From Candidatus Nomurabacteria bacterium (GTDB lineage Bacteria > Patescibacteriota > Minisyncoccia > Phycocordibacterales > UBA918), in assembly GCA_023898585.1 (NCBI GenBank), contig CP060229.1, forward strand, positions 381,912 through 445,911: a DNA stretch of 64,000 bases, in the 5' to 3' direction. The notes under the pieces were generated by a model that was given only the letters and a program-made list of their open reading frames with translations, was not told the origin of the DNA and did no database searches. Positions 8,656-48,938 of this stretch are shown here, one piece after another (within the stretch, counting starts at the first letter, position 1; the number at the start of each line of letters is the position of its first letter). The translations under genes were made by a program, and so were the position numbers.

Positions 8656-8832
8656 CATCAGTGATTTTTCAAAACTTGGAACCACAAAAACACCCTCAAG
8701 AATAATTTAAATATCTCACTCTCTATTTTTGTGCCTCTGAAAGGTACCCCTTCGGGCCGGAGACAAGCTTATAAACTTGCTGTCCCTTCGATTCCTGACG
8801 AGAGCAAAGCAGTTTGCTCTCTGTAGGGGCAC

Positions 8833-8860
8833 GAACAAAAATAGCACACTGATGTGTGCT
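8833..8860 (-). terminator. hairpin agcacac-tgat-gtgtgct plus U-run downstream of tRNA-Arg (minus strand)
   Basis: 7-bp perfect stem followed on the minus strand by UUUUUGUU. Confidence 0.45.
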
Positions 8861-13256: not shown

Positions 13257-13604
13257 TTATATAGCACTCAGTATTTGGTTTTTTGTTGTTTGATTAAGTA
13301 AATCTAGTTTTTCATCGTGATTCCAAGATTGAATTTCTTTTTCTCTAACTCGTGCCTCCTTGCGAGTGGGGTAGCGCTCTAGATGTTGGAGAAACACAGG
13401 TCTGTGCATTTTAGTGTGAAAAGCACCACCCCAACGTAAACCATTATGTTGCTCAATTCGCTTACGAACATTTGATGTTACGCCGGTATAGAGTGACCCG
13501 CTAGAACACTGAACGATATACACATAACAATACATATGCGCTAATAATAACAAAGAGAAAGTCCTAGAAAAACATCCCGACACATTTATCATTATTGTGG
13601 TCAC
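13257..13604 (-). CDS. GIY-YIG nuclease-family protein (UPF0213/YhbQ-like)
   Basis: YVYIVQCSSGSLYTGVTSNVRKRIEQHN is a classic GIY-YIG motif. The likely start is the internal Met near 13533. Confidence 0.7.
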   Translation of the reverse strand: MTTIMINVSGCFSRTFSLLLLAHMYCYVYIVQCSSGSLYTGVTSNVRKRIEQHNGLRWGGAFHTKMHRPVFLQHLERYPTRKEARVREKEIQSWNHDEKLDLLNQTTKNQILSAI

Positions 13605-13747
13605 GAATCACTAAGTATATTTCTGCACTTCGTGAGAAATCTACTAAGTGTTCTCGACCCCGGCTCATCTGTTTTCTTCGCTAGGAAAGGCGAAAAAAAC
13701 ATGACTCCGCCTCGCACCAAGGTGCGCAAGCAAAGCAGTTTGCTTGC

Positions 13748-13790
13748 TATAAGAAAAACCACTGGATTGACTCCAGTGATTTTTCTTATA
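13748..13790 (-). terminator. long hairpin (~19-bp stem, loop ttgac) flanked by A-run/U-run, immediately 3' of tRNA-Val
   Basis: tataagaaaaaccactgga / tccagtgatttttcttata. The single mismatch becomes a G:U pair on the minus-strand RNA. U-rich tail. Confidence 0.6.
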
Positions 13791-36387: not shown

Positions 36388-36992
36388 ACGATATCTAAAA
36401 CTAGTAACTCTTTGTAGTAAGAATGATGTCTAAATGTCTCCCTGTGTATCATTTCTAAACCAACGTCACTGAAGAAGTCTTTAACTTCACTTCTTTTTAA
36501 ATAACTCCTCCAAAATACCCTACAAGGAGTTCCAGCCTTTCGGTTTAAGTACCAATCTCTCCAGACGAGATGTGCTTTTTGGAAGAGGTTGTCATATGTT
36601 TCTTCAACAAAGATAATTCTATTCTTGGTTAATGATACGACGTTTTTTAAATATTCCTTATTTTTCGGTATATGATGGAAGGAAAGGTTAAACACAGTGA
36701 CATCGACGCTTTTTTCTGGTAACCGTAAGTATTTACCGTCATACAAGATTACTTCGCTTTTGTTTACTGTATTTTCATACACGGCAATCTCGTAGATTTT
36801 GAGTGACTTAGAGAAACCACGAATCATCTCAGATAAATGACCAAACCCATTGCCAATCTTTAGTATATCCGCGTTCCCATCGAACAGGAATGGCTTTATC
36901 CTTTCGAACCATTGTTGTTCCCTTTTCTTAAAGAGTATTGAGTAATCTGTCATGTGATAATAATAGCAAAAGTACCACCCCACCGTATACAC
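36384..36992 (-). CDS. class I SAM-dependent methyltransferase-like protein
   Basis: ADILKIGNGFGHL (motif I-like) and VDVTVFNLSFHHIP. Confidence 0.5.
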   Translation of the reverse strand: MYTVGWYFCYYYHMTDYSILFKKREQQWFERIKPFLFDGNADILKIGNGFGHLSEMIRGFSKSLKIYEIAVYENTVNKSEVILYDGKYLRLPEKSVDVTVFNLSFHHIPKNKEYLKNVVSLTKNRIIFVEETYDNLFQKAHLVWRDWYLNRKAGTPCRVFWRSYLKRSEVKDFFSDVGLEMIHRETFRHHSYYKELLVLDIV

Positions 36993-37108
36993 TATTTTGT
37001 ACGAGAGGATAGTTCTAAATTCCCATTAGTGTCCATTTGGCTAGAAATGAAATGATTAGGAATTACAAAGCTATTTGGTTTCAATTACCGTTTGGGCACT
37101 TACTGTCC

Positions 37109-37177
37109 ATGGGGTGGAACCAGTTTGAGGAAATTTGTTTGGAGTGGTTGGAGGAGGCGAGGGAGGTGCTTGTATAA
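37109..37177 (+). CDS. candidate conserved small ORF (22 aa, MGWNQFEEICLEWLEEAREVLV); a paralogous copy ends at 38769
   Basis: Two copies differ mostly by synonymous or conservative codon changes, but both lack a clear SD. A cis-element explanation is equally possible. Confidence 0.25.
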   Translation: MGWNQFEEICLEWLEEAREVLV

Positions 37178-37181
37178 AAAA

Positions 37182-37212
37182 CCGCGTCCTTTGCCATAAG
37201 CTAGGGACGCGG
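37182..37212 (-). terminator. hairpin ccgcgtcc/ggacgcgg plus U6 on minus strand, directly after the 449-aa gene
   Basis: 8-bp GC stem, 15-nt loop. The minus-strand RNA is followed by UUUUUU. Confidence 0.55.
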
Positions 37213-37223
37213 CATTTACCTCA

Positions 37224-38573
37224 TTATTCGACGTTAAGGAGTTGCATCATTCGATCATAGTCGTTTTCCAGCACTTTTTCCTTGATGGGTCGGTGCGTTG
37301 GGTCAACTTCCACGCGATAACCTTGTACGAGACATGTCTCTCGACTTCCGACACCGTTGGTAAAGTCGGGTTCGCCCACCAGTGCATACGCATTTGCACT
37401 CTTGGGGAGTACAGCCTCCACTTCCTTGCGATCGTAGCGAAAGATCGGAACAGGGTAGTTCGAATCGGTATAGAATCGTACCGCTTCTCCCACCTGTTGC
37501 ATGGATTTCACCAGGAACTCTGGTTCGTACGTATCAGCCCGAGCACCTTTCTTTGGCACTTGTGTGAACCAGGTCTCATCCGGCAGTTGCATGAGCACCA
37601 TGAGGCCTCCTGGCGCTTGGTCGAGTCCGGTTGGCTCCATGAGTTCACGCCAGTGCTTTAGTAGCAACTTGCGTGCATCAGGACCTTTGCGGATTTCACC
37701 AGCATCACCCTCACGGACGCCAAACATGCGTGTTCCATCACCCCATCCATGGGGTCCAATGTCACACGACCAGGTTGGGAGACGACCATAGTCATTGCCC
37801 TGGACTTGGGAAATCGCGCCGATACTCAACAGGTGGGCAAAGGCAAAACCTTCTTCCACCTCCTGGTATACGTAGCTACAGCTTGCATCACCAGGTTGGA
37901 TGATGTATGGGTTCATCGGACCACTGCTCGGATCATACGCGTGATGCTTCTTGTAGAACTCGATTGCCAGCCTTGCGTGCTCGGTCAAATATTCAGAAGC
38001 CCGAGGACCGAGTCGTGCACGCAGCACCGGATCGACAAATGCTTCCACAGCCGAAAGGATTGAGAGGAAAGGGTACTGGTACCGACGAAGGTATGTCTCC
38101 AGTTCCACCACCTCGACCGGACCATAGTGTCCACTTTCGAGTTTGTGGAACTCGTCGATCGTGATGCGACCACCTTCTCGTCCGCGAGTCTTGTCGCTTG
38201 TTTGCCACTTGTAGGCGTCGACAACACCACGTTCGGTTGCCATCGGGCCAACGCCGTGGGCAACGAGTAGGATCTTGATGCCACCTTTGCTCATCCCTAC
38301 GTACTCGGCAGACATCGTGGTGAAGTACTGATCCCACGGGGTCGGGTTGGAAGGGTCGTAGCCATTCAGGTGTTTCGGCGGAGTTGCAAGCCGTGCATCG
38401 ACCACGTCAAGCATGGTGCCGACATGACCTTTGTCTCCAGCGAATCTGGAAGCTTGCCGGAAGGATGGCACGAAGCCATCCATGTGGAAGAAGCTCATAG
38501 CTTCACCAGTTGCGGTTTTTTCAGACATTAGTAGTCTCCTTGTTTCCGTTTTTGGATTTGAAGGAACGGACAA
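37224..38573 (-). CDS. hypothetical protein (449 aa) in GC-rich island
   Basis: Long ORF in a locally GC-rich stretch, with many spurious antisense ORFs on the + strand. No family recognised by eye. Confidence 0.6.
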   Translation of the reverse strand: MSVPSNPKTETRRLLMSEKTATGEAMSFFHMDGFVPSFRQASRFAGDKGHVGTMLDVVDARLATPPKHLNGYDPSNPTPWDQYFTTMSAEYVGMSKGGIKILLVAHGVGPMATERGVVDAYKWQTSDKTRGREGGRITIDEFHKLESGHYGPVEVVELETYLRRYQYPFLSILSAVEAFVDPVLRARLGPRASEYLTEHARLAIEFYKKHHAYDPSSGPMNPYIIQPGDASCSYVYQEVEEGFAFAHLLSIGAISQVQGNDYGRLPTWSCDIGPHGWGDGTRMFGVREGDAGEIRKGPDARKLLLKHWRELMEPTGLDQAPGGLMVLMQLPDETWFTQVPKKGARADTYEPEFLVKSMQQVGEAVRFYTDSNYPVPIFRYDRKEVEAVLPKSANAYALVGEPDFTNGVGSRETCLVQGYRVEVDPTHRPIKEKVLENDYDRMMQLLNVE

Positions 38574-38773
38574 TGTGTCCGGCGAAACAATACAATATAA
38601 AGATTTATTTGTCTACATTAAAAAAGTCCATAGTGGAACTAAAAAGTCATTATTTTATTCTGTTTCCCAGATATCTAGGACAGTAGGGCACGTACTGTCT
38701 CTCGGGTGGAACCAGTTTGAGGAATTGTGTATTGAATGGCTTGAAGAAGCGAGAGTAATTTTTGTATGAAAAA

Positions 38774-38826
38774 GCCACCCTTCCGCCGAAACGAAAGGGT
38801 CGCTTTCAGTTTCGTGGTTGGGTGGC
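38774..38826 (-). terminator. hairpin gccaccc...gggtggc plus U5 on minus strand, directly after the 116-aa gene
   Basis: 7-bp outer stem with structured loop. The minus-strand RNA is followed by UUUUU. Confidence 0.4.
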
Positions 38827-38827
38827 G

Positions 38828-39178
38828 TCAGTCAGGGCGGCGGCCTTCTTTCCAGCCACCGCATATGGACTTGTAACCAGGCGGGAACGCCTCGTTGAAC
38901 GTGTGACCACCGTGTTCTTCCAGGGCGCGTTGGACTTCCCAGCACACTTCGTCCCGCTGTTCTTCGGTCATGTTGATGAACTGCATGGTGTAGACTCGCG
39001 CCATTGCGTGAATGTCGGGCGACGTTTCGATACTGGGGTCAGTCAGGAAGTTGACGGTAGTGGTGTCGAGTCGCTCGAAGCTCCACCGTTTCTGAAATGC
39101 TGTCTGTACAGCGTGGCGAATGGCTTTCATCTGCGGTACTTCGTCCGCAGTGAAACCGGTCACATCGACAATAGGCAT
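38828..39178 (-). CDS. hypothetical protein (116 aa), possibly tautomerase-superfamily-like (Met-Pro start)
   Basis: MPIVDVTGF... with Pro at position 2, ~116 aa. GC-rich codon usage. Family assignment is weak. Confidence 0.3.
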   Translation of the reverse strand: MPIVDVTGFTADEVPQMKAIRHAVQTAFQKRWSFERLDTTTVNFLTDPSIETSPDIHAMARVYTMQFINMTEEQRDEVCWEVQRALEEHGGHTFNEAFPPGYKSICGGWKEGRRPD

Positions 39179-39189
39179 CGTGTCCTCCT

Positions 39190-39723
39190 TCAGGCCAGGA
39201 AGTTCCGGCCGTCGAGCTTGTCATTGCTGTTTTCGAATGCGTAACGACCGAGCGCCTTGAGTGAGTCAGCGGTCATCCCGGAGATGAGCTGGTCAATACA
39301 CGGTTTTTCGCCCGAGAAGCCGACCACCAGTCCGTGTCGTTTGACGCCGCCCCAGTAGGGCGTGTCGCCCGAGAACAGCAGGTGAGCGTTCGAATCGGTC
39401 TGCCCGTCATCGTTGCGTCCCTGCCAGAGCTGGAGCGCCTTGCAACGGGCGATGTCGTCGAACGGGTACTCCCAGTTATCCTTTTCACCCACGCTCTCTT
39501 CATAGAGCAAGTGCGGGTAAATCGGGTAGTTGGGCCAGTCGGGGTAGTCTTCCGATCGCACGTCGTCCATCGACGGAACGAGGATGACGAGATGACCTTG
39601 GCGACGCTTCATGGCGTCGGCGTAAGGGCCTTCTTCGGCGAATAGTGTGACCGAAAACACCTGCTTGGCCACCTGGGCGGCCAGTTGCGGGGTGAGGTAC
39701 TTGGGGGTGAGCAATTGGCTCAT
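39190..39723 (-). CDS. GlcG/DUF336-family protein
   Basis: GGVKRHGLVVGFSGEKPCIDQLISG resembles the DUF336 core motif. The likely start is the Met at 39723 (the ORF-track frame extends to 39816). Confidence 0.5.
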   Translation of the reverse strand: MSQLLTPKYLTPQLAAQVAKQVFSVTLFAEEGPYADAMKRRQGHLVILVPSMDDVRSEDYPDWPNYPIYPHLLYEESVGEKDNWEYPFDDIARCKALQLWQGRNDDGQTDSNAHLLFSGDTPYWGGVKRHGLVVGFSGEKPCIDQLISGMTADSLKALGRYAFENSNDKLDGRNFLA

Positions 39724-39879
39724 GTCGTTTCTCCACTTGGTTGCGAATTGTGATTGCCGAAATGGCGGGAACTTGTAGATCGTAGTGATCCATAAGCTGG
39801 CAAAAAAGTATAGCAAAAGTCAATTTTTGTAAATACTAACTCGACATTAGTGAAACTAGAATCTTCTGTCTGACCTGGG

Positions 39880-41634
39880 CTATGCAGAGATTTTTTCCTC
39901 TATGATGCTCTTCAAATCAGCAACGTCGTCGCTAACGTATGATTCTGGTAGGTGAGAAGCAGATTCAATTTCGACTTTTGCTTCCTCGTACTTTTTATTG
40001 TCTAAGTAGTGTCGAGCTTTTTCGTAATGCCATATTTGAGAGGCAATATTTTTATTTTTAGTTGATGCAAAGCGTTCTATGGCTTTTGTGTAGTACGCAT
40101 CTCCTTTGTTATTTTTGCCAGTTCGGAAACAAAGCAGTCCTTTTGTTGCTGAAAGTGATGGTGGCAGCTCATCGTCTTTATACTTTTTGAGGATATCCTC
40201 AGCTTTTTTAAAATGTCCGCCTAAAATGTAAGCGTGAGCTAGGTTGTTTTCAATGTAAGGCATGTCAAAACCAAGCTCTAGTGCACCTTCAAGTAGTTTT
40301 ATTGACGCTTCGTAATCCTTGTCTAGTGAAGAAAGTATAAAACTATAGTCAGGGTAAACTTCACGGATGCGAGGTTCTATTTCTAGAGATTTCTCGAAAT
40401 AAGTTTTTGCATTGTCGTATTGCTTCATCCTCCCTAGGTATGCTCCTCTTAGGTAAAAACCAAAAGCATCCTCTGGGTGAATGCGTAATATGAAGTCGGC
40501 TGTTTCTTTTAGTTTATCTAAGTCGTCTCTGTCAACGGCTGATCTCCCTATGTTGTAAGATGATTTTAGGTGATCAATTTTGATATTAAGATTGCGCTTG
40601 CCGGAGATGTGTTTTTTGAATAAAGAGGCAGCTTTTTCGAAACAAGCGTCACCTTGAGTGTTCAGACCAACTGATTTATAGCAAACTCCAAGATTGTTGT
40701 ATAAAAGATCGTTGTTTTTCTCTTCTTGTATCTTCTTTTGGTACCAGGGTATCGCTTCTTCGAAGTTTCTTAGCTCCATTAGTAGCCAACCAATCTTATG
40801 CTCCCAAACGTGGTCGAGTATCAACTGACTATGTTTTGCCTTTACGAGTGTTTCTAAGGCTTCAGCGTATTTTTTTCCGTTCACGTACAGATAGGCCAGG
40901 TTTTGATAACTGTGTATATATCTAGGATCTATTTCAATAACACTCTTGAAAAGACCTTCCGCATCTCCAGGGTTGCCAGACCGTAGATGGGCCACCCCAA
41001 GGTTATTTATCGCGTGTATATAACGGTTATTTATAGATCTTGATCTTTCAAAATACGTTACTGAACCTTCTATGTCTTTCTTAAGGTTTAGGAGTATAAA
41101 CCCATGAGTGTTGATAACTTCGTAGTCTGCTGGATCTTTTTGTTCAGCTTCATTTAAAACGCTGATGGCTTCCTCTACATCACGATTTTTTTCATCTATT
41201 AAAGCTTTAAAAATGGCATACTTATGCAAAATATCTGGGCGACGATTGGTAACTTCTAGTACCTTCCTGAAAAATAGGTTTGCTTGGTCGATGTCCTTGT
41301 GTGATATGCATGCAAAGAGTATTTTTTCGTATGCCGGTAAATGGTCAGGTTTTAAATCTATCGCCATTAGGAAGTAGGTGATAGCACGTTTGTAATTACC
41401 TTTCATTAGGTACAGATCGCCAACCTGCATTAGAGTCTGTGGTGCCTCGCGTTCACTAAGTCTTTTCTTGGCGAACCTCATTTGCTCATTTATGAACTTA
41501 TGTTTAAACTTGTGTCCGAAAGAGTTGACGGGAGAAGCGTCTGTAGAGGAAATAGGAGTATGAGTTGGTCGTGATTTTGCAGCACCAATAACCGGTTCGA
41601 TGTAATCGTTGGTATTTTGGGTCTGAGTAATCAT
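39880..41634 (-). CDS. TPR-repeat protein (584 aa)
   Basis: Multiple 34-residue TPR-like repeats (W/LG/Y...A...F...A...P patterns). 4-bp overlap with the upstream kinase gene. Confidence 0.7.
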   Translation of the reverse strand: MITQTQNTNDYIEPVIGAAKSRPTHTPISSTDASPVNSFGHKFKHKFINEQMRFAKKRLSEREAPQTLMQVGDLYLMKGNYKRAITYFLMAIDLKPDHLPAYEKILFACISHKDIDQANLFFRKVLEVTNRRPDILHKYAIFKALIDEKNRDVEEAISVLNEAEQKDPADYEVINTHGFILLNLKKDIEGSVTYFERSRSINNRYIHAINNLGVAHLRSGNPGDAEGLFKSVIEIDPRYIHSYQNLAYLYVNGKKYAEALETLVKAKHSQLILDHVWEHKIGWLLMELRNFEEAIPWYQKKIQEEKNNDLLYNNLGVCYKSVGLNTQGDACFEKAASLFKKHISGKRNLNIKIDHLKSSYNIGRSAVDRDDLDKLKETADFILRIHPEDAFGFYLRGAYLGRMKQYDNAKTYFEKSLEIEPRIREVYPDYSFILSSLDKDYEASIKLLEGALELGFDMPYIENNLAHAYILGGHFKKAEDILKKYKDDELPPSLSATKGLLCFRTGKNNKGDAYYTKAIERFASTKNKNIASQIWHYEKARHYLDNKKYEEAKVEIESASHLPESYVSDDVADLKSIIEEKISA

Positions 41635-42608
41635 ATGTTGAGTTTGTCTAAATCTGCTTCCAGTTCCTCGATGCTATTGTATCTTCTGGAATGGTCGATA
41701 TCACAGAGCTTTTCAATGATTTTGTTAATCTCCTGGGTTAGTTGGTAATCTACCAGAGATACGTGTAAGTTTGAGTAGTCGAGATTTCTTCTTGTTTCAA
41801 GCCACTTGCTATAAAACTGTTCTCTTTCGGTATAGGTTTTTCCGTTCGTGCTAAACGAGTTTTGTTGCATGTAGGTACCAATATCTCCCACAAGTTGTGA
41901 GTAATGTATTATTGGTGTTCCGTTAAATAGGAAAGATAATAAAATACCGAGAGCATAGTGATCGGTCTTTTTAGAAAGACCGATATTAGTACCGTCTGTT
42001 ATCTCAAAGAAGAGTTCGGGAGGACGTACGTATCTATGACCTACGCAAGGACGATCAAGATAATCAAGAGGCTCAAGGTTGTGATCTTTTGCTCTTCCAA
42101 AATCACACAACTTAACCTGTTGTTCGTCACCGTCAAATACTAAAACATTGTTCCACCAGAGATCTCTGTGTACTACGTCCAGTTGGTGGGCATGCTTTAC
42201 ACCAGTACATATCTTTCTGAATGTAGAGATAAGTTCAGAAGGTGTCTGATTATAGTTTTCTTTTATATGGGCATCAAGATTGCCTTGAGCAAGCTCCATC
42301 AGATAGTAGAAAAATGGACTCTCTTCCTCGTTAACACTCAAAGGAAGTATTATTTGTTCGCAATGCAAAGGTGTGTGTAGTCTGTGGAGGATGGTATTTT
42401 CTTGTTTGAAGCGGTCAATCTCTTCTTTGGGAGCGCCGTCTCTGCAGACTTTTAGAGCAATCGGCGAACCGTATTCTTCATTTTTTACCTCGTAGACAAT
42501 ACCAAAATTGCCGCCACCCAGCTCTCTAATTACAGTATTTTCTCGAATCTTTTGCCCTGTCGTTAGCATGGTAGTCGTTACTATAGGCAACACCTTTTCC
42601 GTTGTCAA
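41631..42608 (-). CDS. Ser/Thr protein kinase (Hanks-type)
   Basis: G-loop LGGGNFGIVY, VAIK-like IALKV, catalytic loop HRDLWWNNVLV, DFG (DFGRAKD). Confidence 0.8.
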   Translation of the reverse strand: MTTEKVLPIVTTTMLTTGQKIRENTVIRELGGGNFGIVYEVKNEEYGSPIALKVCRDGAPKEEIDRFKQENTILHRLHTPLHCEQIILPLSVNEEESPFFYYLMELAQGNLDAHIKENYNQTPSELISTFRKICTGVKHAHQLDVVHRDLWWNNVLVFDGDEQQVKLCDFGRAKDHNLEPLDYLDRPCVGHRYVRPPELFFEITDGTNIGLSKKTDHYALGILLSFLFNGTPIIHYSQLVGDIGTYMQQNSFSTNGKTYTEREQFYSKWLETRRNLDYSNLHVSLVDYQLTQEINKIIEKLCDIDHSRRYNSIEELEADLDKLNI

Positions 42609-42662
42609 AGATGAGTATCGAGACTAGGTTACTATCGTTCGCTCATTTTACTGTCACACCTG

Positions 42663-43034
42663 TCACTTTTCAAAGATGGATGCTACTAGTCGATCAATTC
42701 TTTCTTGATCGATCTGTTTTGCGGGCAGTTCGATTGTTTGCCTAGGAATGTCCCAGCCGTAGTTACACCGTAAATTAAACATTGCCCCAGTAACAGCCCC
42801 GCCTCTAAATAGGTGTTCTTCAGCGAATGTCTCACAGCGCTGTTTTGCTGCCTCTATCGTGTCAAAAAATTCCTCTTTTCGTGAGTAATTCAACAATGTT
42901 TGTCGTGTGACTCCGAGAAAAAGAGATAGTCCGGATATTGTATACGGTCGATCTTGTTGATCGCATAGTTGAAAATAGCCGTCCACAGCGGTCTGTAGAG
43001 CTATTTGGTTGTTGAATTTAAGTGGCCTTGACAC
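42663..43034 (-). CDS. phage terminase small subunit-like protein (HTH DNA-packaging protein)
   Basis: Pattern YTISGLSLFLGVTRQTLLNY...EFFDTIEAAKQRCE...FNLRCNYGW resembles TerS-family N-terminal domains. Confidence 0.5.
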   Translation of the reverse strand: MSRPLKFNNQIALQTAVDGYFQLCDQQDRPYTISGLSLFLGVTRQTLLNYSRKEEFFDTIEAAKQRCETFAEEHLFRGGAVTGAMFNLRCNYGWDIPRQTIELPAKQIDQERIDRLVASIFEK

Positions 43035-43049
43035 CTATGTATTTTACCA

Positions 43050-43529
43050 TCAAATACAGGCTGGGCTGGAGTAATTTATTGTTTTGCAGACATACTCTAT
43101 GCCTGCCCTAAAAGCGTATTCGGTTGTTGAGTCCATAAAATCTTCGTTCAAGTCTAGAGCTTTTTCTAGCGCCTCGCTCTGAGCCGCCTGTTTGCCATGT
43201 ATGAATCCTGCGTTATAGCGTGCTTCTCCAAACTCAGATACTGACATGCTGCCTATGTTTATATCAGTACTAGGTTGATTTTCTTCTTCCGTTTCGTACA
43301 AGGACCAAGCGTCTTCATAACCATCTTCGTAACCCACCTCTATACCTGCATCGTAACCAGACGCATATCGTTCCTTCATCTGCGCTGAAATAAATAGCCA
43401 GACTACAATTAGTGCGATTATCGTCAATATGGATATGATTATCTTTTTCATGGTTACGTCTGTATACAAAAAGCCCACTGCTAAAAGGTAGGATGTGAGT
43501 CCACATGCCCAGTTTCCCAGACATGACAC
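43050..43529 (-). CDS. hypothetical membrane-anchored protein
   Basis: The likely start is the internal Met (MKKIIISILTIIALIVVWLF). Acidic ectodomain. Confidence 0.4.
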   Translation of the reverse strand: MSCLGNWACGLTSYLLAVGFLYTDVTMKKIIISILTIIALIVVWLFISAQMKERYASGYDAGIEVGYEDGYEDAWSLYETEEENQPSTDINIGSMSVSEFGEARYNAGFIHGKQAAQSEALEKALDLNEDFMDSTTEYAFRAGIEYVCKTINYSSPACI

Positions 43530-43673
43530 AGAACGTGACCCCGTTAACAGCGGGTTCTTTATCGTTCTGTGATTAACTTATTCGCACCATGCCGCGCCTC
43601 ACGGCAGCGGGTTAGGTGACTATATTGTCTTTTAATAGTATCAGAAATAAGGGTATGATACGAGGAAATGTAA

Positions 43674-44417
43674 ATGTATATGGATGCAAAAAGGGTAAAA
43701 ACAGTATGGAGATCAGTTGTTAAAAGGATTCCTGCCGAATATGTGACTGAAACTCGGGAAAGATTGAATATTCCACCAAAGGGGTTTTTGACCTTTAAGG
43801 ACCAAGAAAAGTGGTATCAAAACGCATTAAAAGAAGTTACTGCAATGAGTCGTGGTGCCTACAAAGGGAAAAGATTAACTGAGCGGCAACGAATCGTCTT
43901 AAACAAAGCATTGGAAAAGACAGATTATGGGATTTTGCAGCAAGCGATTTCTACCATCGTAGAAAAATTTCCAGTACTAAAAGGATATGAAGATGCCGTA
44001 CGGGAAGGTTTGTTGGGCTTAATGAACGAAAAAAGTATCAATTCGGGCGATTACACTGGTTGTGAATTTGCGTATGTGACCAAAGATTCTGGAGATACAG
44101 ATTTATCTGAAGGTTTGTACATCAGGGTTTCCAGTCACACAACCAAGCAAGACATTGATGATTTTTTAACAAAGAAAAAAACTGCTTTTCAAAAGCTGAA
44201 AAAGCTTCTATATCCAGATGAGCCAATCCGTTATCAGGTTTCACCAGCAGCAGAGAGGAAAGAGATGACGAGAATTTTGCGCGACCATTCATTAGTGGAA
44301 CTTAATAAGTTGTGTAAAAAAGAGTGCGAGGAAAGGGGTGATTATGATCCCATATTGCCGACTCGAAAGGATATGGCTATTGAAAGACTTCTTAAATTTT
44401 GGGGATACAAGAAGTGA
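43674..44417 (+). CDS. hypothetical protein (247 aa), divergently transcribed
   Basis: ORF with plausible start. No domain recognised. Confidence 0.45.
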   Translation: MYMDAKRVKTVWRSVVKRIPAEYVTETRERLNIPPKGFLTFKDQEKWYQNALKEVTAMSRGAYKGKRLTERQRIVLNKALEKTDYGILQQAISTIVEKFPVLKGYEDAVREGLLGLMNEKSINSGDYTGCEFAYVTKDSGDTDLSEGLYIRVSSHTTKQDIDDFLTKKKTAFQKLKKLLYPDEPIRYQVSPAAERKEMTRILRDHSLVELNKLCKKECEERGDYDPILPTRKDMAIERLLKFWGYKK

Positions 44418-44504
44418 TCTAGTGCAGTTAAATGACCGTTTGTTAGTAAAAACTCAACTAGGGTTGGGTTTTTACTAACTCCTAATTCTTTTACGGGGAA
44501 TACT

Positions 44505-44744
44505 TTGGTCACTATGACTAATGTATATAAAACATCAGATTTAAATGAGGCGGTCGTACTTTTATGTTATGACCACAAACTAGAGTACATTGATAAAACA
44601 GAGCGGCGGGCACAATTTTGCTTTACGGAGCAATCTGATACCGCTGAAGTAATTAAGAATTATAGGCTACGTGAAATTCAGATAGAGCCACATTCCTTTT
44701 ACCAACACCAACGCGATCTAAAGGATCGTTTGTATAACGGCTAG
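44505..44744 (+). CDS. hypothetical small protein (79 aa)
   Basis: ORF immediately upstream of the primase gene. Confidence 0.4.
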   Translation: MVTMTNVYKTSDLNEAVVLLCYDHKLEYIDKTERRAQFCFTEQSDTAEVIKNYRLREIQIEPHSFYQHQRDLKDRLYNG

Positions 44745-44748
44745 GCTT

Positions 44749-47007
44749 ATGTCAGGTGTAAGTAAATTGAACAACGACAGTAGTCATTTGAATAAGTTAA
44801 AGGAAGCTGCGCTACAGTACGTAAAAGACGGCCACCCCATTGTACCTATGGGCCTCAATGGTGATACAGGGGACTATAAAAGGCCACTAGTAAGGTGGCG
44901 AGATGTAGACGGTCCGGCTCGGACAGAAAAAGCTGTAGAGAGTTTATTTTCCAAGTTTGGCAAACGAATTTTCGGAATCGCAACAATTGTTGAGCGGCAT
45001 ATCCTGGTCGATTTTGATACAGAGGATTCACACAAGTTATTTAGGCTACAACCAGCCCCAACCATTAAAACTGGCAAAGGTAGACACATGTGGTATGCCA
45101 CAACTTCTGTAGTCAAACAGAATGGGCCACTTGACTTGTCTGAACATGAAAAGAGGGACGGTAAAAAATATCAGGTAGAGATTTACACAGAAAAGCGGCT
45201 TGAAATTCTGCCACCCTCTCTACATCACTCTGGTGTGTTGTACGAATGGGAGCTGGACTATACAGATTTCTTAGATTTGTCACCTTTACCTGAAGATTTG
45301 GTCCAATTGTGTGGAATTAAAAAGGAGAAAGTTGGCCAGAAAAAAAGCGACATATTTCAAATCATCTATGAGGGTGAGCGACACAGCAAATTAAAAGAAG
45401 CTTGTTTTTACTTCTTTAATAAGCATAAAGGGAATGGAAAAAAGATAACCAAATCAGTTCTGGCCTGGAACATCGAATATTGTAATCCTCCAATAGATGA
45501 AGGTGAGGTTGGGAACATGGTCGATTGGACTATCAAAAACTTTGATGCACCTGACGGGAAGAAAGACAAAGAACCGAAACAAAGTCAGGCAGTAATTGAG
45601 TATATTGAAGAAAATAAAGCAATTACGCTATTCCACGACCAAGACAAGATTGGTTTTGCTCGCCTCAATTCACAAAAGGGAGTGAATATTCCAATTCACA
45701 GTCAAGAGTTTACTGAGTTTTTATCCCTACTCGCGTATCAATCTGACAAAAGTGTTTTAACGGATTATGTTTGTAAAGAGATTCAGTCAGTTTTACATGC
45801 CAAAGCATTGTATGAGTCTTCCCAGCACGCTCTACAACACCGAGTGTATCAGTCTGGTGAGTGTGAATTTTACTATGACCTCTGCAACGATGCTGGAGAA
45901 GCAGTAAAGATAACAAAAGACGGGTGGACTATTGAATCGGGAGAGAAAATACAGTTTCTTTTTAAGCGCGGTGCTGCAACAGAACAGCCGAGACCAGTTA
46001 AGGGTGGAAACCTAAGACAGTTTCTCGATTTTGTGAATCTCAAAGACGAAGATGAACAGATGTTGTTTTTGTGCACGCTTCCCGTGCGAATGATTCGAGA
46101 TATCGACCAGCCGATCGTTTACATCTACGGCCCAGCTGGAAGTGCAAAAACCACACTGCTTAAACTGACTAAAGACCTGCTTGACCCGTCTCAAGGTGGA
46201 ATTTCAATGCCGGTAAAAAAGCTTGAACACATCACGCCGCTTTTAAATCAGACGTGGGTGTTTGCTAATGACAACATATCTCATATTGGTGACGAGTTGT
46301 CTGACTTCTTTTGTGTAATGGCCACTGGAGCTGAAAGTGCTCGTCGCACCTTGTATAAAGACTCAGAAGTGACAGTGCATCGTGTTAAGAACCCTGCATA
46401 CATGACGGGCATCAACATTGAAGCTAGTAATAGTGACTCACTTAGCAGGTTGTTGATCTTTAAGACTGAAGCGTTGGGTAAGGGGAATCTCAAGAATAAA
46501 AATGATCTTTTTAGAAAATATCAGCAGATGAAACCACAGCTGCTGGGCTCTATTTTTGACACATTAGTAGCAGCTTCGAATGTAAAGCAGGACTTACCAC
46601 AACAGACCGAGTTCCGTATGACTGAATATGCGCTATGGGGCGCTGCATGTGCCGAGGTGCTCGGGTATGGGGCTGAAAATTTTGAAAAGGCTTTACAGAG
46701 AGCAATGAGAGCTCGGGCTTATGACGCCATCCAGTCTTCTAGCGCAGGTCGAGCGCTTTTGAAACACCTCGAAAGCAACCTTTCTTTTGAAGGGACAATG
46801 ACTCAGCTTCTAAAGACACTAAAGGATCTGTATTTTGAGGATGATTTTCATGAAAGATGGGGTGAGACTGTAGCAAACAATCCTGAATCACTAAGCAAGA
46901 AACTGCGTGAACTTGAAAATAGTCTATCAGAGATAGGCATAACCATAGATTTTAAACGAACAGCCACAGAACGATTGATTGTCATAAGTCGAGTAGAGGG
47001 GTTTTAG
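44749..47007 (+). CDS. primase-helicase replication protein (Prim-Pol N-terminal domain plus D5/P4-type P-loop NTPase)
   Basis: Prim-Pol DxD (HILVDFDTED). Walker A GPAGSAKTT in the C-terminal half. 752 aa. Confidence 0.7.
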   Translation: MSGVSKLNNDSSHLNKLKEAALQYVKDGHPIVPMGLNGDTGDYKRPLVRWRDVDGPARTEKAVESLFSKFGKRIFGIATIVERHILVDFDTEDSHKLFRLQPAPTIKTGKGRHMWYATTSVVKQNGPLDLSEHEKRDGKKYQVEIYTEKRLEILPPSLHHSGVLYEWELDYTDFLDLSPLPEDLVQLCGIKKEKVGQKKSDIFQIIYEGERHSKLKEACFYFFNKHKGNGKKITKSVLAWNIEYCNPPIDEGEVGNMVDWTIKNFDAPDGKKDKEPKQSQAVIEYIEENKAITLFHDQDKIGFARLNSQKGVNIPIHSQEFTEFLSLLAYQSDKSVLTDYVCKEIQSVLHAKALYESSQHALQHRVYQSGECEFYYDLCNDAGEAVKITKDGWTIESGEKIQFLFKRGAATEQPRPVKGGNLRQFLDFVNLKDEDEQMLFLCTLPVRMIRDIDQPIVYIYGPAGSAKTTLLKLTKDLLDPSQGGISMPVKKLEHITPLLNQTWVFANDNISHIGDELSDFFCVMATGAESARRTLYKDSEVTVHRVKNPAYMTGINIEASNSDSLSRLLIFKTEALGKGNLKNKNDLFRKYQQMKPQLLGSIFDTLVAASNVKQDLPQQTEFRMTEYALWGAACAEVLGYGAENFEKALQRAMRARAYDAIQSSSAGRALLKHLESNLSFEGTMTQLLKTLKDLYFEDDFHERWGETVANNPESLSKKLRELENSLSEIGITIDFKRTATERLIVISRVEGF

Positions 47008-47019
47008 CATTTTGGCTTA

Positions 47020-47181
47020 TGACCAGCCTCGAAACATTTAAAGAGATTCTTATAGAATGCGGTGTTTCCGTGCCAGAAGAGCAGATCGAAGTGTTTCGTG
47101 ATTTGATTGATGCGCAAGCCGATTTGATTTTAGACTCATGGCTCAAAAGTAAACATGACGGTTGTGACAGTGTAAAATAAA
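47020..47181 (+). CDS. small hypothetical ORF (53 aa) between primase and recombinase
   Basis: Unlisted ORF MTSLETFKEILIECGVSVPEEQIEVFRDLIDAQADLILDSWLKSKHDGCDSVK. Fills the intergenic gap. Confidence 0.3.
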
Positions 47182-47184
47182 CGT

Positions 47185-48933
47185 ATGCAGAAAGAACGGC
47201 CCAGGACATGTCTAGCTAGTGCACGAATCAGTAGCCAACAACAAATGGCTGGTGAGAGTCTTGATGATCAGGTGCGAGTTCTCAAAACTACCGCTGAACA
47301 TAAAGGACTTAAGATACTACCTGACGGTGAGGTAGCCGTTGAGATATTCACTGGTACAAAACGTCGTCCTGTGTACGAACAGCACATTCAGTACATCAAA
47401 GACAATCCGGGCAAGGTTGGTTACTATCTAATTCGATACATTGATCGCTTTACTCGTGGTGGTGCCTCTGTCTATCACGACATGAAAAAAGAACTTTCCG
47501 ATTTGGGAGTGATGCTCATTGATACAAACGGAATCATCCAAGAATCACGGAACATGCCGGAATTGGCTGAGATGGGTTTTGAATATGAGTGGAGTGTCGA
47601 ATCACCAAGTGACATGACTGAGGTGATGATGGCAACAACAGCCAAACAGGAACGCGACACAATTCTAAAAAGAACAATTCCTAAGCAGATTGCTTATACT
47701 CAAAAAGGATTTCAGATAGGTCGCCCTGACGATGGAATGATGAACTATCGTACTCAAGTGGGGACACAGATACGATTTGTGCAGGTCCCCGATCCAGAGC
47801 GCGCTCACTTCATAAGAAAAATATTTGAGCTACGGGCAGAGAATAAACACTCTGATCAAGAGATACTTCATATTGTGAATGAAGACATGGGGTTTCGTAC
47901 TAAAAAATTCCATCGCTGGAATAAAACCCACACAGAGATTATCGGTGAAGGAGGTGGCCACAAGCTTCATATCAAGCAGCTACAGCGCATTTATCAGCGT
48001 TTAGCGTATGCAGGTGTACTTTGCGAGAAATGGACGCACCACAAGCCAATTAAGGCGCAATGGGACGGCTTAGTATCAATTGAGCTATGGAACAAAGCAA
48101 ACCGTGGCAAGATTTTCATTAAGGAGTACGACAATGACCTGTTGGAGATTCTGTACGACTATAAAACCGAGAAGCCCGTCTATCAACGACTTCGATACAA
48201 CCCAGAGTATCCTTTCAAGTGTGTAAGTTGTCCGCAGTGCAACAAGCCACTTAAAGGCAGTGCACCACGCGGGCGCGGCGGAACATACCCACGCTATCAC
48301 TGTGAACGTGGCCACACTTCATTTACGGTCAGTCGGCAACAAATGAATCAGACTGTCGAAGCATTTTTGGACAGTGTCGATTATGACGATGATTATCTGA
48401 AAGTTTTAGAAGAAGTGCTGGTCCGTAAACTACGACAGCGACAGAAAGATATTGTGCAGGAATCAGAGAAGCTAAACGAACGAGTCACTTTATTAAAGAG
48501 CCAACAGAAGCAGGTTCTAGGTACTTTAATCTCAACTGAGAGTCCGACGGTCAAAGTCATGCTTGAGAAAGAATTGGAGACCATTGTTGCTGACATCAAA
48601 AAGGCTGAATCAATTCGTTTCTCTGTCGATCTCACTGAAGGCAATATTACTGAGTTGGTGAGCTACGCACGAAAGATAGTGGAATCACCGAAAAAAGCCT
48701 TGATAGATAAAGACAATCCACTCCGACAGAAGCAGTTATTCAAGCTTTTCTTCGAGGACCTACCAACCTATACAGAATTGGATAGTGGAACCGCTAAAAA
48801 ACGCTTTCTTTTCAATAGGAAATGTATTGTCGAGACCCCTGAAAACAGGGTGTCTAGACAGAAGGGGCGACTACTGGGAATCGAACCCAGATTTCCGGTA
48901 CCACAAACCGGCGTAATAGCCGTTATACAATAG
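47185..48933 (+). CDS. large serine recombinase (resolvase catalytic domain, recombinase domain, zinc ribbon, coiled coil)
   Basis: Catalytic ARISSQQQ (cf. YARVS..Q) and IDRFTRG. Zn-ribbon CVSCPQC...HCERGH. The last ~23 codons overlap tRNA-His on the opposite strand. Confidence 0.75.
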   Translation: MQKERPRTCLASARISSQQQMAGESLDDQVRVLKTTAEHKGLKILPDGEVAVEIFTGTKRRPVYEQHIQYIKDNPGKVGYYLIRYIDRFTRGGASVYHDMKKELSDLGVMLIDTNGIIQESRNMPELAEMGFEYEWSVESPSDMTEVMMATTAKQERDTILKRTIPKQIAYTQKGFQIGRPDDGMMNYRTQVGTQIRFVQVPDPERAHFIRKIFELRAENKHSDQEILHIVNEDMGFRTKKFHRWNKTHTEIIGEGGGHKLHIKQLQRIYQRLAYAGVLCEKWTHHKPIKAQWDGLVSIELWNKANRGKIFIKEYDNDLLEILYDYKTEKPVYQRLRYNPEYPFKCVSCPQCNKPLKGSAPRGRGGTYPRYHCERGHTSFTVSRQQMNQTVEAFLDSVDYDDDYLKVLEEVLVRKLRQRQKDIVQESEKLNERVTLLKSQQKQVLGTLISTESPTVKVMLEKELETIVADIKKAESIRFSVDLTEGNITELVSYARKIVESPKKALIDKDNPLRQKQLFKLFFEDLPTYTELDSGTAKKRFLFNRKCIVETPENRVSRQKGRLLGIEPRFPVPQTGVIAVIQ

Positions 48934-48938
48934 TCGCC
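48866..48938 (-). tRNA. tRNA-His (anticodon GTG) with encoded G-1
   Basis: Manual fold. Extra 5' G pairs with discriminator C. Anticodon loop tTGTGgt. T arm GGGTTCGATTCCC. Confidence 0.75.

Follow-up and report, generated by a model that had tools for sequence, protein, structure and literature searches.

Intergenic blocks beside a Patescibacteria tRNA-His gene are probably detached 3′ ends of large serine recombinase genes

Organization of the locus

The window analyzed here is a 64,000-nucleotide stretch of contig CP060229.1 from Candidatus Nomurabacteria bacterium. It contains two copies, A and B, of an intergenic block, each followed by a hairpin:

37094–37177, forward strand: copy A, comprising a putative GGGC crossover region, a putative P′ half-site and the probable last 27 codons of a recombinase gene with the stop codon TAA (37175–37177)
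38686–38769, forward strand: copy B, comprising a putative P′ half-site and 27 codons with the stop codon TGA (38767–38769)
37181–37215, reverse strand: intrinsic terminator of the gene at 37224–38531, with the stem CCGCGUCC/GGACGCGG followed by UUUUUU
38775–38827, reverse strand: intrinsic terminator of the gene at 38828–39178, identified by folding energy and a consensus scan

Both blocks described in the original prediction are present and share 64 of 84 nucleotides (76%) from GGGCAC to the stop codon. The perfect core was given as 24 nt, but the longest exact run common to the two copies is GGGTGGAACCAGTTTGAGGAA, which measures 21 nt (37112–37132 and 38704–38724, forward strand). No other match to this core with up to three mismatches is found in the window, and none is expected from shuffled sequences. 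Copies A and B are detected by nhmmer with E-values of 2e-21 and 3e-22 respectively. The similarity was said to run from the GH residues onwards, and it indeed starts at GGG CAC; upstream of that point none is seen for A.

Both copies are located inside a 2.8-kb stretch with a G+C content of approximately 52–56%, while the rest of the window averages approximately 37–41%. The GC hairpin after each copy had been assigned as the terminator of a minus-strand gene, which is confirmed by the location of the U run on the minus strand and by the folding energies of −21.6 kcal/mol (z −3.5) for 37181–37215 and −28.6 kcal/mol (z −5.0) for 38775–38827. The latter terminator is also recovered by the consensus scan. 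A distance of 100–113 nt between each block and the next minus-strand gene start is obtained only with the longest-ORF starts (GTG 36992 and TTG 38573); with the likelier ATG starts at 36956 and 38531, the distances become approximately 138 and 155 nt. The ATG at 38531 is preceded by GGAG, and the choice of ATG 36956 as a start is our own reading.

Approximately 10 kb to the right of the blocks, a large serine recombinase (LSR) gene abuts and overlaps a tRNA-His gene:

47185–48933, forward strand: LSR gene of the present element (E3), with Pfam Resolvase and Recombinase domains; the final 22 codons (starting with GGG at 48865) are antisense to tRNA-His (putative attR)
48864–48937, reverse strand: tRNA-His (GTG), the proposed integration target, with its 3′ end toward the array

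Distribution of the block in Patescibacteria

A profile built from the two translated blocks was searched against 5.8 billion proteins and retrieved only three short ORFs (P0001–P0003, 33–47 aa) from metagenome contigs. Back-translated patterns, in which all synonymous codons were allowed, were scanned against one genome per species and identified 13 loci, mostly in metagenome-assembled genomes (MAGs) of Patescibacteria (Saccharibacteria, Nomurabacteria, Kaiserbacteria and Paceibacteria). A scan of metagenomes for the exact core added 27 contigs, and a scan of viral contigs gave no match to the core, a result that counts against the mechanism proposed below. The search of related genomes for further copies, which had been proposed with the original prediction, was successful: approximately 75 block copies are detected by nhmmer (E<1e-4) in the window and 43 other contigs, which come from Saccharibacteria, Nomurabacteria, Kaiserbacteria, Paceibacteria and other MAGs.

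Many loci carry 2–6 copies with a spacing of 0.7–3.5 kb. The copies are in a single orientation throughout and all are intergenic, in arrays between accessory genes, in agreement with the proposal that the block punctuates the genes of the island. RelB/ParE cassettes are recurrent in these arrays. The gene next to a block is often convergent, and the block is usually located 3′ of the convergent gene. The genes flanking the block in related loci are found on either strand, which argues against the suggestion that the block is a cis-regulatory leader of its minus-strand neighbours. A tRNA-His gene was recovered from the DNA retrieved for seven of these loci that carry arrays and were searched (L001, L003, L005, L008, L011, L022 and L024).

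Coding signature and invariant core

The block displays two distinct constraints. In the degenerate search, GGGTGGAACCAGTTTGAGGA was unchanged in every recovered copy with a readable core, although synonymous codons were allowed, and column entropies show that GGGTGGAACCAGTTTGAGGAA is nearly invariant at the nucleotide level across the family. These observations point to nucleotide-level constraint on the first half of the block.

Protein-coding constraint in the forward frame first noted for A and B is clearly seen across the family. In 51 intact distinct copies, pN/pS in this frame (forward frame 0) is 0.46, compared to 1.15 and 1.47 in the other forward frames, and no column shuffle out of 200 reached 0.46. 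Approximately 47 of the 51 copies retain an intact frame, a few copies contain frameshifts or internal stops, and codon 28 is a stop in 41 (TGA in 21, TAA in 15 and TAG in 5). Leu19 is encoded by all of TTA, TTG, CTG, CTA, CTC and CTT, and Arg23 by AGG, AGA and CGG. The differences between A and B, which had been described as mostly synonymous or conservative, are distributed 7:2:11 over codon positions 1:2:3 (counted from the codon table), with a pairwise dN/dS of 0.23. Coding on the opposite strand (frame −1) was rejected, as its pN/pS of 0.48 results from common third positions and it contains no conserved stop or start.

Relationship to the C-terminus of large serine recombinases

The LSR in the window matches PF00239 (7.8e-08) and PF07508 (4.9e-05), and is thus a protein with Resolvase and Recombinase domains, not Phage_integrase. 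The antisense tRNA-His end of its gene reads AAG GGG CGA CTA CTG GGA ATC GAA CCC (KGRLLGIEP). The LSR genes of loci L024 and L033, whose products are 77–81% identical to the window LSR, likewise run into antisense tRNA-His, with the ends GGG CGG CTA CCG/TCG GGA ATC. Block copies read GGG CGG CTA CCG ACC CTC GGG TGG AAC (GRLPTLGWN) in the LSR frame, and the first 12 nt of the copies that start with GGG CGG CTA CCG are the reverse complement of the tRNA-His 3′ end. The block starts with GGGCACGTACTG in A and B, and with GGGCG(A/G)CTACCG in other copies.

The C-terminal tails were surveyed in the best 120 of approximately 326 LSR homologues. Among these 120, 60 have a tRNA-antisense tail (G-I/F/V-E-P...) and 33 a native-tail pattern, which is nearly always [LF][GS]WN.[IF]E.....W. 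Homologues P0004–P0030 mostly have a tRNA-antisense end like that of the window LSR. P0031 has the tail ...SHQ-GHVLSLGWNQLQNFCLGWLSAVR and P0047 the tail ...LGLEWNQFEDNIISWTEQARLLF; these two are the clearly close unsplit genes among the homologues examined. In L044, the contig of P0031, the end of the LSR gene, ...GAATCCCATCAA, continues directly and in frame into GGGCACGTACTGTCCCTCGGGTGGAATCA, an arrangement that could be a tandem junction instead of a free attP. The recombinases homologous to the block peptide are 580–620 aa in length. The presence of two C-terminal classes, together with the continuity in L044, therefore indicates that the block peptide corresponds to the native C-terminal tail of the LSR family.

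Four features can be read directly from the sequences: the frame common to the block and the LSR, the coding signature seen across the family, the two C-terminal classes among the homologues and the unsplit LSR gene. On this basis, the block is most probably the detached 3′ end of an LSR gene, with an inherited coding signature: the codon-like divergence among the copies would derive from recombinase genes that had diverged under selection before each insertion. A dN/dS-type signature can thus be present without translation in situ, since the block peptide shows homology to a recombinase C-terminus and, in L044, directly continues one. This calls for caution in small-ORF discovery, as dead gene fragments can inherit signatures of purifying selection. 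The nucleotide-invariant core is best read as the P′ half-site of the recombinase, with GGGTGGAACCAGTTTGAGGAA as its presumed outer part.

Proposed mechanism of block formation

Copies A and B are very likely attL junction scars of LSR-driven elements that target the 3′ end of tRNA-His. In this mechanism, attP would be located inside the 3′ end of the recombinase gene, so that the reading frame would cross first the P half-site, then a crossover located at GGGC or beside it, and finally the P′ half-site for approximately 27 more codons, which would encode the native tail G-H/R-V/L-L-S-L-G-W-N-Q-F-E-E-x-C-x-x-W-L-E-E-A-R-x-x-F-x-stop. On the forward strand, the reverse-complemented 3′ end of tRNA-His starts at GGGC. 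Upon integration, the recombinase gene on the attR side would gain a tail from the antisense tRNA (G-R-L-x-G-I-E-P...), and the attL side would receive the P′ half-site followed by 27 orphan codons and a stop, with neither a promoter nor a start codon. Each new integration at the regenerated tRNA would displace the older elements and add a scar in the same orientation, and the older elements would erode until only some cargo genes were left. In some loci an inverted partner of the block is found (see below), and this would be the P half-site.

The junctions compared are those of L044 (attP-like), L033 (attR), L033_1380 (attL) and L003 (attB-like), and only GGGC is common to all four. They are arranged as hybrids: P–GGGC–P′ in L044, the same P followed by GGGC and tRNA in L033, varied left flanks followed by GGGC and P′ in the attL copies, and native flank–GGGC–tRNA in L003 and L001. 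An overlap limited to GGGC fits the very short crossover of serine recombinases. We infer from these comparisons recombination at GGGC, conservation of the core through recombinase binding, the order of the insertions and the activity of the elements. Neither an excised circle nor an empty integration site was recovered.

The P half-sites at the LSR gene ends differ between close homologues (L033 and L044 compared to the window and L024). A good dyad is formed at copy B of the window (GACAGTA-GGGCACG-TACTGTC), in L024 (GGACAGCAG / CTACTGTCC) and in the two-arm units described below; it is absent between the L033 or L044 gene end and the block. When the attL sites of the LSR elements in L024 and L033 were sought with P-left/P-right sequences, only 10-mers at chance level were returned.

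Three putative insertions in the window

The segments to the left of E3 can be assigned as follows:

36993–37093, forward strand: probable relic of native DNA from downstream of tRNA-His (B-left side), directly adjacent to A and identified by flank alignment; low-G+C, host-like DNA starts here
37224–38531, reverse strand: putative cargo remnant of element E1, encoding 435 aa, with a G+C of 0.52
38620–38685, forward strand: probable decayed relic of the last ~20–40 codons of the E1 recombinase gene (P side), contiguous and in frame with B
38828–39726, reverse strand: putative cargo remnant of element E2, two genes encoding 116 aa and 178 aa, with a G+C of 0.56
39863–39874, forward strand: weak candidate for the E3 P′ half-site, at the right edge of the GC-rich island

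Two blocks within 36993–37093, agttctaaattcccatta-gtg and tagaaatgaaatgatt, can be aligned with the flank next to the real tRNA-His genes of L001 and L005, as well as with the left flanks of L008_223, L001_443 and L036_2080. The identity of this flank is 40–53% for the window, compared to approximately 70% among most of the others, and the G+C left of A is 0.37. Copy A is therefore probably the oldest scar, as it abuts a degenerate relative of the tRNA-His-adjoining flank. The 435-aa protein encoded between A and B has no match in Pfam, NCBIfam or PADLOC.

The region 38620–38685 shows weak collinear matches to the C-terminus of the window LSR (YKDLFVYIKKVHSGTKKSLF to FEDLPTY-TELDSGTAKKRF, and ISRTV-GHVL to RVSRQK-GRLL), and has the 10-mer ATAGTGGAAC in common with it. 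At B, CTAGGACAGTAG abuts GGGCAC on the left side, and TCTAGGACAGTAG followed by GGGC resembles the GTCTAGACAGAAG and GTCTGGACAGCAG that precede GGGC at LSR gene ends. Copy B and 38620–38685 would together reconstitute an attP-like, unsplit gene end, as would result from the insertion of a new element next to an older one. This configuration is also found in L005, L042, L008_2430 and L044. The 116-aa and 178-aa proteins of E2 have no family match.

For E3, CTTCTGTCT-GAC at 39863–39874 is the inverted partner of GTCTAGACAGAAG (12 of 13 nt, with one gap), and represents the best match within 14 kb left of the tRNA. No block is detected there by nhmmer. The site coincides with a drop in G+C, and the tail predicted for E3 from this candidate attL has only a loose resemblance to the tail of A and B. 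The present element extends over approximately 9 kb to the tRNA, and contains kinase/TPR, gp3-like small terminase, Prim-Pol/helicase-like and LSR genes, with the TPR and kinase genes matching the PADLOC candidate system PDC-M71.

The probable order along the window is thus native flank, A, E1 cargo, recombinase relic, B, E2 cargo, E3 and tRNA-His. What had appeared as a micro-ORF would become a map of three successive insertions beside tRNA-His, which would also explain the GC-rich island and its edges.

Two-arm units and the upstream spacer

Approximately 21 copies are followed, at a fixed distance, by TGGTTCCACT(G/A)GGTYGGTAG, the inverted partner of the first 30 nt of the block. These ‘complete’ units are 117–120 nt long and contain both arms, with cargo between units; in other loci, the inverted partner is located on the far side of the cargo. 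No adjacent second arm was found at A or B. The inverted-repeat partner matches the two half-sites expected of an attP. The inner helix that can be drawn between the arms (P2) is 97.8% paired, invariant and never covaries. The outer helix (P1) has six pairs with changes on both sides; its covariation is modestly above that of shuffles, in which the observed values were reached in 16–23 of 500. In a slid-partner control, 84% of cells are paired, compared to 31–46% when the partner is slid. Additionally, a conserved, A/T-rich spacer of 46 nt, which ends with TTAAAAT just before GGGCG, precedes some copies, but neither A nor B. A unit of approximately 200–250 nt was also observed, the first 20 nt of which are reverse-complementary to the 3′ end of tRNA-His.

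The 117–120-nt units and the conserved 46-nt spacer count against simple serial integration, since neither is predicted by it, and the ~200–250-nt unit is not accounted for by it either. An extended explanation is that the tRNA-His locus serves as a serine-recombinase cassette platform, in which the 117–120-nt units are miniature elements mobilised in trans (an integrative counterpart of MITEs) and the stored tails can be rejoined to a recombinase gene, as at B of the window and in L044. We consider this extension rather unlikely. If it were true, the arrays would be a functional system for gene capture and tail switching instead of passive scars, and a switch of the C-terminus might alter the direction or specificity of the enzyme, as reported for Mx8 Int.

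Alternative explanations

The first of the two explanations offered at the outset, a free-standing selected micro-protein of 22–33 aa with its own start codon between the island genes, would account for the coding-type substitutions and the conserved stop. Moreover, gene callers predicted the three small ORFs P0001–P0003, an in-frame ATG is present at codon 6 of copy A, and codon 14 is ATG, TTG, GTG, CTG, ATT or ATA in 41 of 51 copies, with GAGGA before it. However, GAGGA is only 2 nt from codon 14, and no start codon or ribosome-binding site is conserved across the 51 intact distinct copies; in copy B, none of ATG, GTG and TTG occurs close to the block. The ATGs of P0001–P0003 are upstream of the conserved block, and the one in L001 is inside the hairpin of a flank class that is also seen next to real tRNA-His genes. 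Where the common 46-nt spacer precedes the block, an in-frame TAA is present two codons upstream of GGG. These features and the homology of the peptide to the recombinase tail make a selected micro-protein most improbable.

The inverted arms can alternatively be interpreted in structural terms. As a boundary of integron-like cassettes, the block would be a folded single-stranded hairpin resembling attC and recognized by a dedicated, non-LSR recombinase. The arrays in one orientation, which separate one or two genes each and have the block mostly 3′ of a convergent gene, are compatible with this, as are the RelB/ParE cassettes, which also recur in chromosomal integrons, and the ~21 imperfect inverted-repeat units with their two paired boxes, asymmetric internal loop and modest covariation. 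Yet the R″/R′ consensus (RYYYAAC / GTTRRRY) is absent and no GTT is conserved, the outer box reading CTACCGACCC / GGGTYGGTAG or CTACTGTCC / GGACAGTAG. An adjacent second arm is missing from most copies (A and B among them), no tyrosine recombinase is present among the selected proteins scanned, and the coding signature and the in-frame continuity with the LSR gene would be left unexplained; we consider an integron-like boundary highly unlikely. If the block were instead a small structured RNA, or a cis-regulatory leader, with transcription from the conserved spacer and with the arms folded into a long helix, this would agree with the position of TTAAAAT directly before GGGCG, with the slid-partner control and with the many G-U pairs in the helices, which become C-A mismatches if read on the other strand. 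Against it, P2 does not covary and the covariation of P1 is just modestly above shuffles, copies such as A and B, which lack both the spacer and the second arm, do not retain the central hairpin, and neighbouring genes occupy either strand. Three-base periodicity with a conserved stop would also be unexpected, and no Rfam family matches: at the gathering score of Rfam 15, the window and 17 loci yielded tRNAs (plus LOOT elsewhere) and no other family, with nothing at E≤1 around a copy. Such an RNA has very little chance of being the correct explanation.

Several other candidates were rejected. Restoration of the 3′ end of a host-protein gene was dismissed as no gene body is found upstream of any array and the search of 5.8 billion proteins returned only the three short ORFs. 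A template or variable repeat of a diversity-generating retroelement was dismissed as, by inspection, the A/B differences are not adenine-specific. Neither the block nor the ~200–250-nt unit matched a tmRNA or tRNA-like RNA gene with ARAGORN and Rfam. The uniform array orientation and the 46-nt spacing speak against a transposon or MITE with terminal inverted repeats and against a shufflon or invertible promoter, and a sigma-54 promoter noted by eye has a spacing that is off by one and is on the wrong strand.

Comparison with known systems

The interpretation of the blocks as attL scars has several implications. A large clade of serine integrases, mostly from candidate-phyla bacteria, would target tRNA genes, carry attP in their own gene and exist in two C-terminal forms, so that the tail type provides a simple sequence rule for separating integrated from free copies. 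The junctions provide candidate attP/attB pairs for potential genome-engineering enzymes, and a handle on how the tiny, recombination-poor genomes of Patescibacteria gain accessory and defence genes. Literature searches on Patescibacteria with integron or attC, or with large serine recombinase and tRNA, found nothing relevant.

LSR attachment sites consist of imperfect-dyad half-sites around a very short crossover, with the recombinase located at the end of the element and with attL and attR as hybrids that lack a long direct repeat. The junctions described here are consistent with this general layout. Serine integrases at tRNA genes were called ‘not known’ (PMC4383910), and a survey found them to be rare, with 14 of 297 at tRNA genes, a use ‘not reported previously’ (PMC7192596). 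In contrast, tRNA targeting seems to be the rule in the clade of the window LSR, given the 60 antisense tails among the best 120 homologues.

The arrays resemble integron attC arrays in that repeats of ~60–140 nt with an imperfect dyad are located in the same orientation between accessory cassettes, but differ from them in the missing R″/R′ consensus, the mostly missing second arm and the gene fragment carried by the repeat, and no integron integrase was seen among the selected proteins scanned. The islands formed by tycheposons, in which serial integration at island tRNAs leaves scattered remnants (10.1101/2020.12.28.424599), are comparable in organization: an integrase is located beside a tRNA, newer elements displace older ones and att fragments are scattered. 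The present element likewise contains Prim-Pol/helicase-like, gp3-like small terminase and defence-like cargo genes. Tycheposon-like islands, however, mostly use tyrosine integrases and their repeat is a partial tRNA, whereas the repeat here is a recombinase 3′ end plus approximately 12 nt of tRNA, and the hosts are Patescibacteria.

A further parallel is provided by the integrases of Mx8 and SSV, which ‘extend across attP’ (PMC4383910); the attP of Mx8 is within the integrase coding sequence, which acquires a new 3′ end upon integration (PMC6070905). As proposed here, the recombinase ORF of these systems spans the attachment site, and integration replaces its C-terminus. The Mx8 and SSV enzymes are tyrosine recombinases, while the window LSR contains Resolvase and Recombinase domains and so shares the principle without being a member of the same group; additionally, only ~4 nt (GGGC) are common to the four junction types here, and the family is known solely from its sequences. 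The finding is thus a serine-recombinase variant of the principle known from Mx8 and SSV, in a poorly studied phylum.

Integrated element adjoining tRNA-His

An integrated element of about 9 kb (39880–48937) adjoins tRNA-His and resembles a PICI- or tycheposon-like satellite. The large serine recombinase (LSR) gene is also among its genes, and three GC-rich cargo genes (52–56% G+C) are encoded in the window on the minus strand; searches of Pfam, NCBIfam and PADLOC gave no matches for these three.

Genes of the element and GC-rich cargo genes (window coordinates)
37224–38531 (-), GC-rich cargo gene
38828–39178 (-), GC-rich cargo gene
39190–39726 (-), GC-rich cargo gene
39880–41634, TPR protein; matches B of the PADLOC candidate defence system PDC-M71 (E 9e-28)
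41631–42608, Ser/Thr kinase; matches A of PDC-M71 (E 3e-24)
42663–43034, gp3-like small terminase
44749–47007, Prim-Pol/helicase-like protein

More distant LSR homologues (P0058, P0068, P0076, P0083, P0115, P0116 and others) end in other tRNA-antisense tails, such as VGIEPTLEVLETPVLPLY, and these differing C-terminal sequences suggest that subclades within this serine recombinase family target other tRNA species. Within the LSR coding region itself, antisense to the codons for ...PTYTELDSGTA..., lies a close likeness to the inverted partner of the repeat, GCGGTTCCACT...(15 nt)...GGTTGGTAGG (48750–48794, -), which may be a functional site or a chance resemblance.

A second conserved unit

Among the related loci, mostly on Patescibacteria contigs, there is also a second conserved unit, which is noncoding and about 200–250 nt long (e.g. 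locus L008 5774–6006 and locus L011 5797–6005). Its 5' end in these loci is the reverse complement of the last 20 nt (3') of tRNA-His, and its 3' end combines a T-arm-like GTTCGATTCC with the conserved hairpin GAGCAAAGCAGTTTGCTC, an end that looks acceptor-like, and a terminator. The window has partial relatives at 13600–13750 (+) and 8785–8848 (+), convergent with the adjoining tRNA-Val and tRNA-Arg. Neither Rfam nor ARAGORN returned a match for the unit. A second integrase family could have left it as a scar; alternatively, it could represent an unknown RNA gene. Separately, Rfam LOOT RNA matches occur in two related Patescibacteria loci, L007 (10877–10992, -; 75 bits) and L024 (5941–6055, -; 64 bits), and bear no relation to the repeat.

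Two-arm units and their cargo

The repeat and its inverted partner, held at constant spacing, form units of 117–120 nt, with accessory genes, such as RelB/ParE pairs, in between.

Two-arm units in related loci
L040: 1727–1844, 2454–2570, 3238–3353
L008: 228–346, 2432–2550, 3972–4090
L033: 1385–1502

A RelB-antitoxin/ParE-YafQ-toxin pair recurs as cargo between repeats in several arrays (L040 1856–2399, L019 816–1431 and L006 3608–4186; also L018, L020 and L029) with about 77% nucleotide identity, and the homology stops at most a few nucleotides from the flanking repeats. This arrangement of two-arm units with accessory genes between them is similar to the layout of integrons, and is beyond what simple serial integration predicts.
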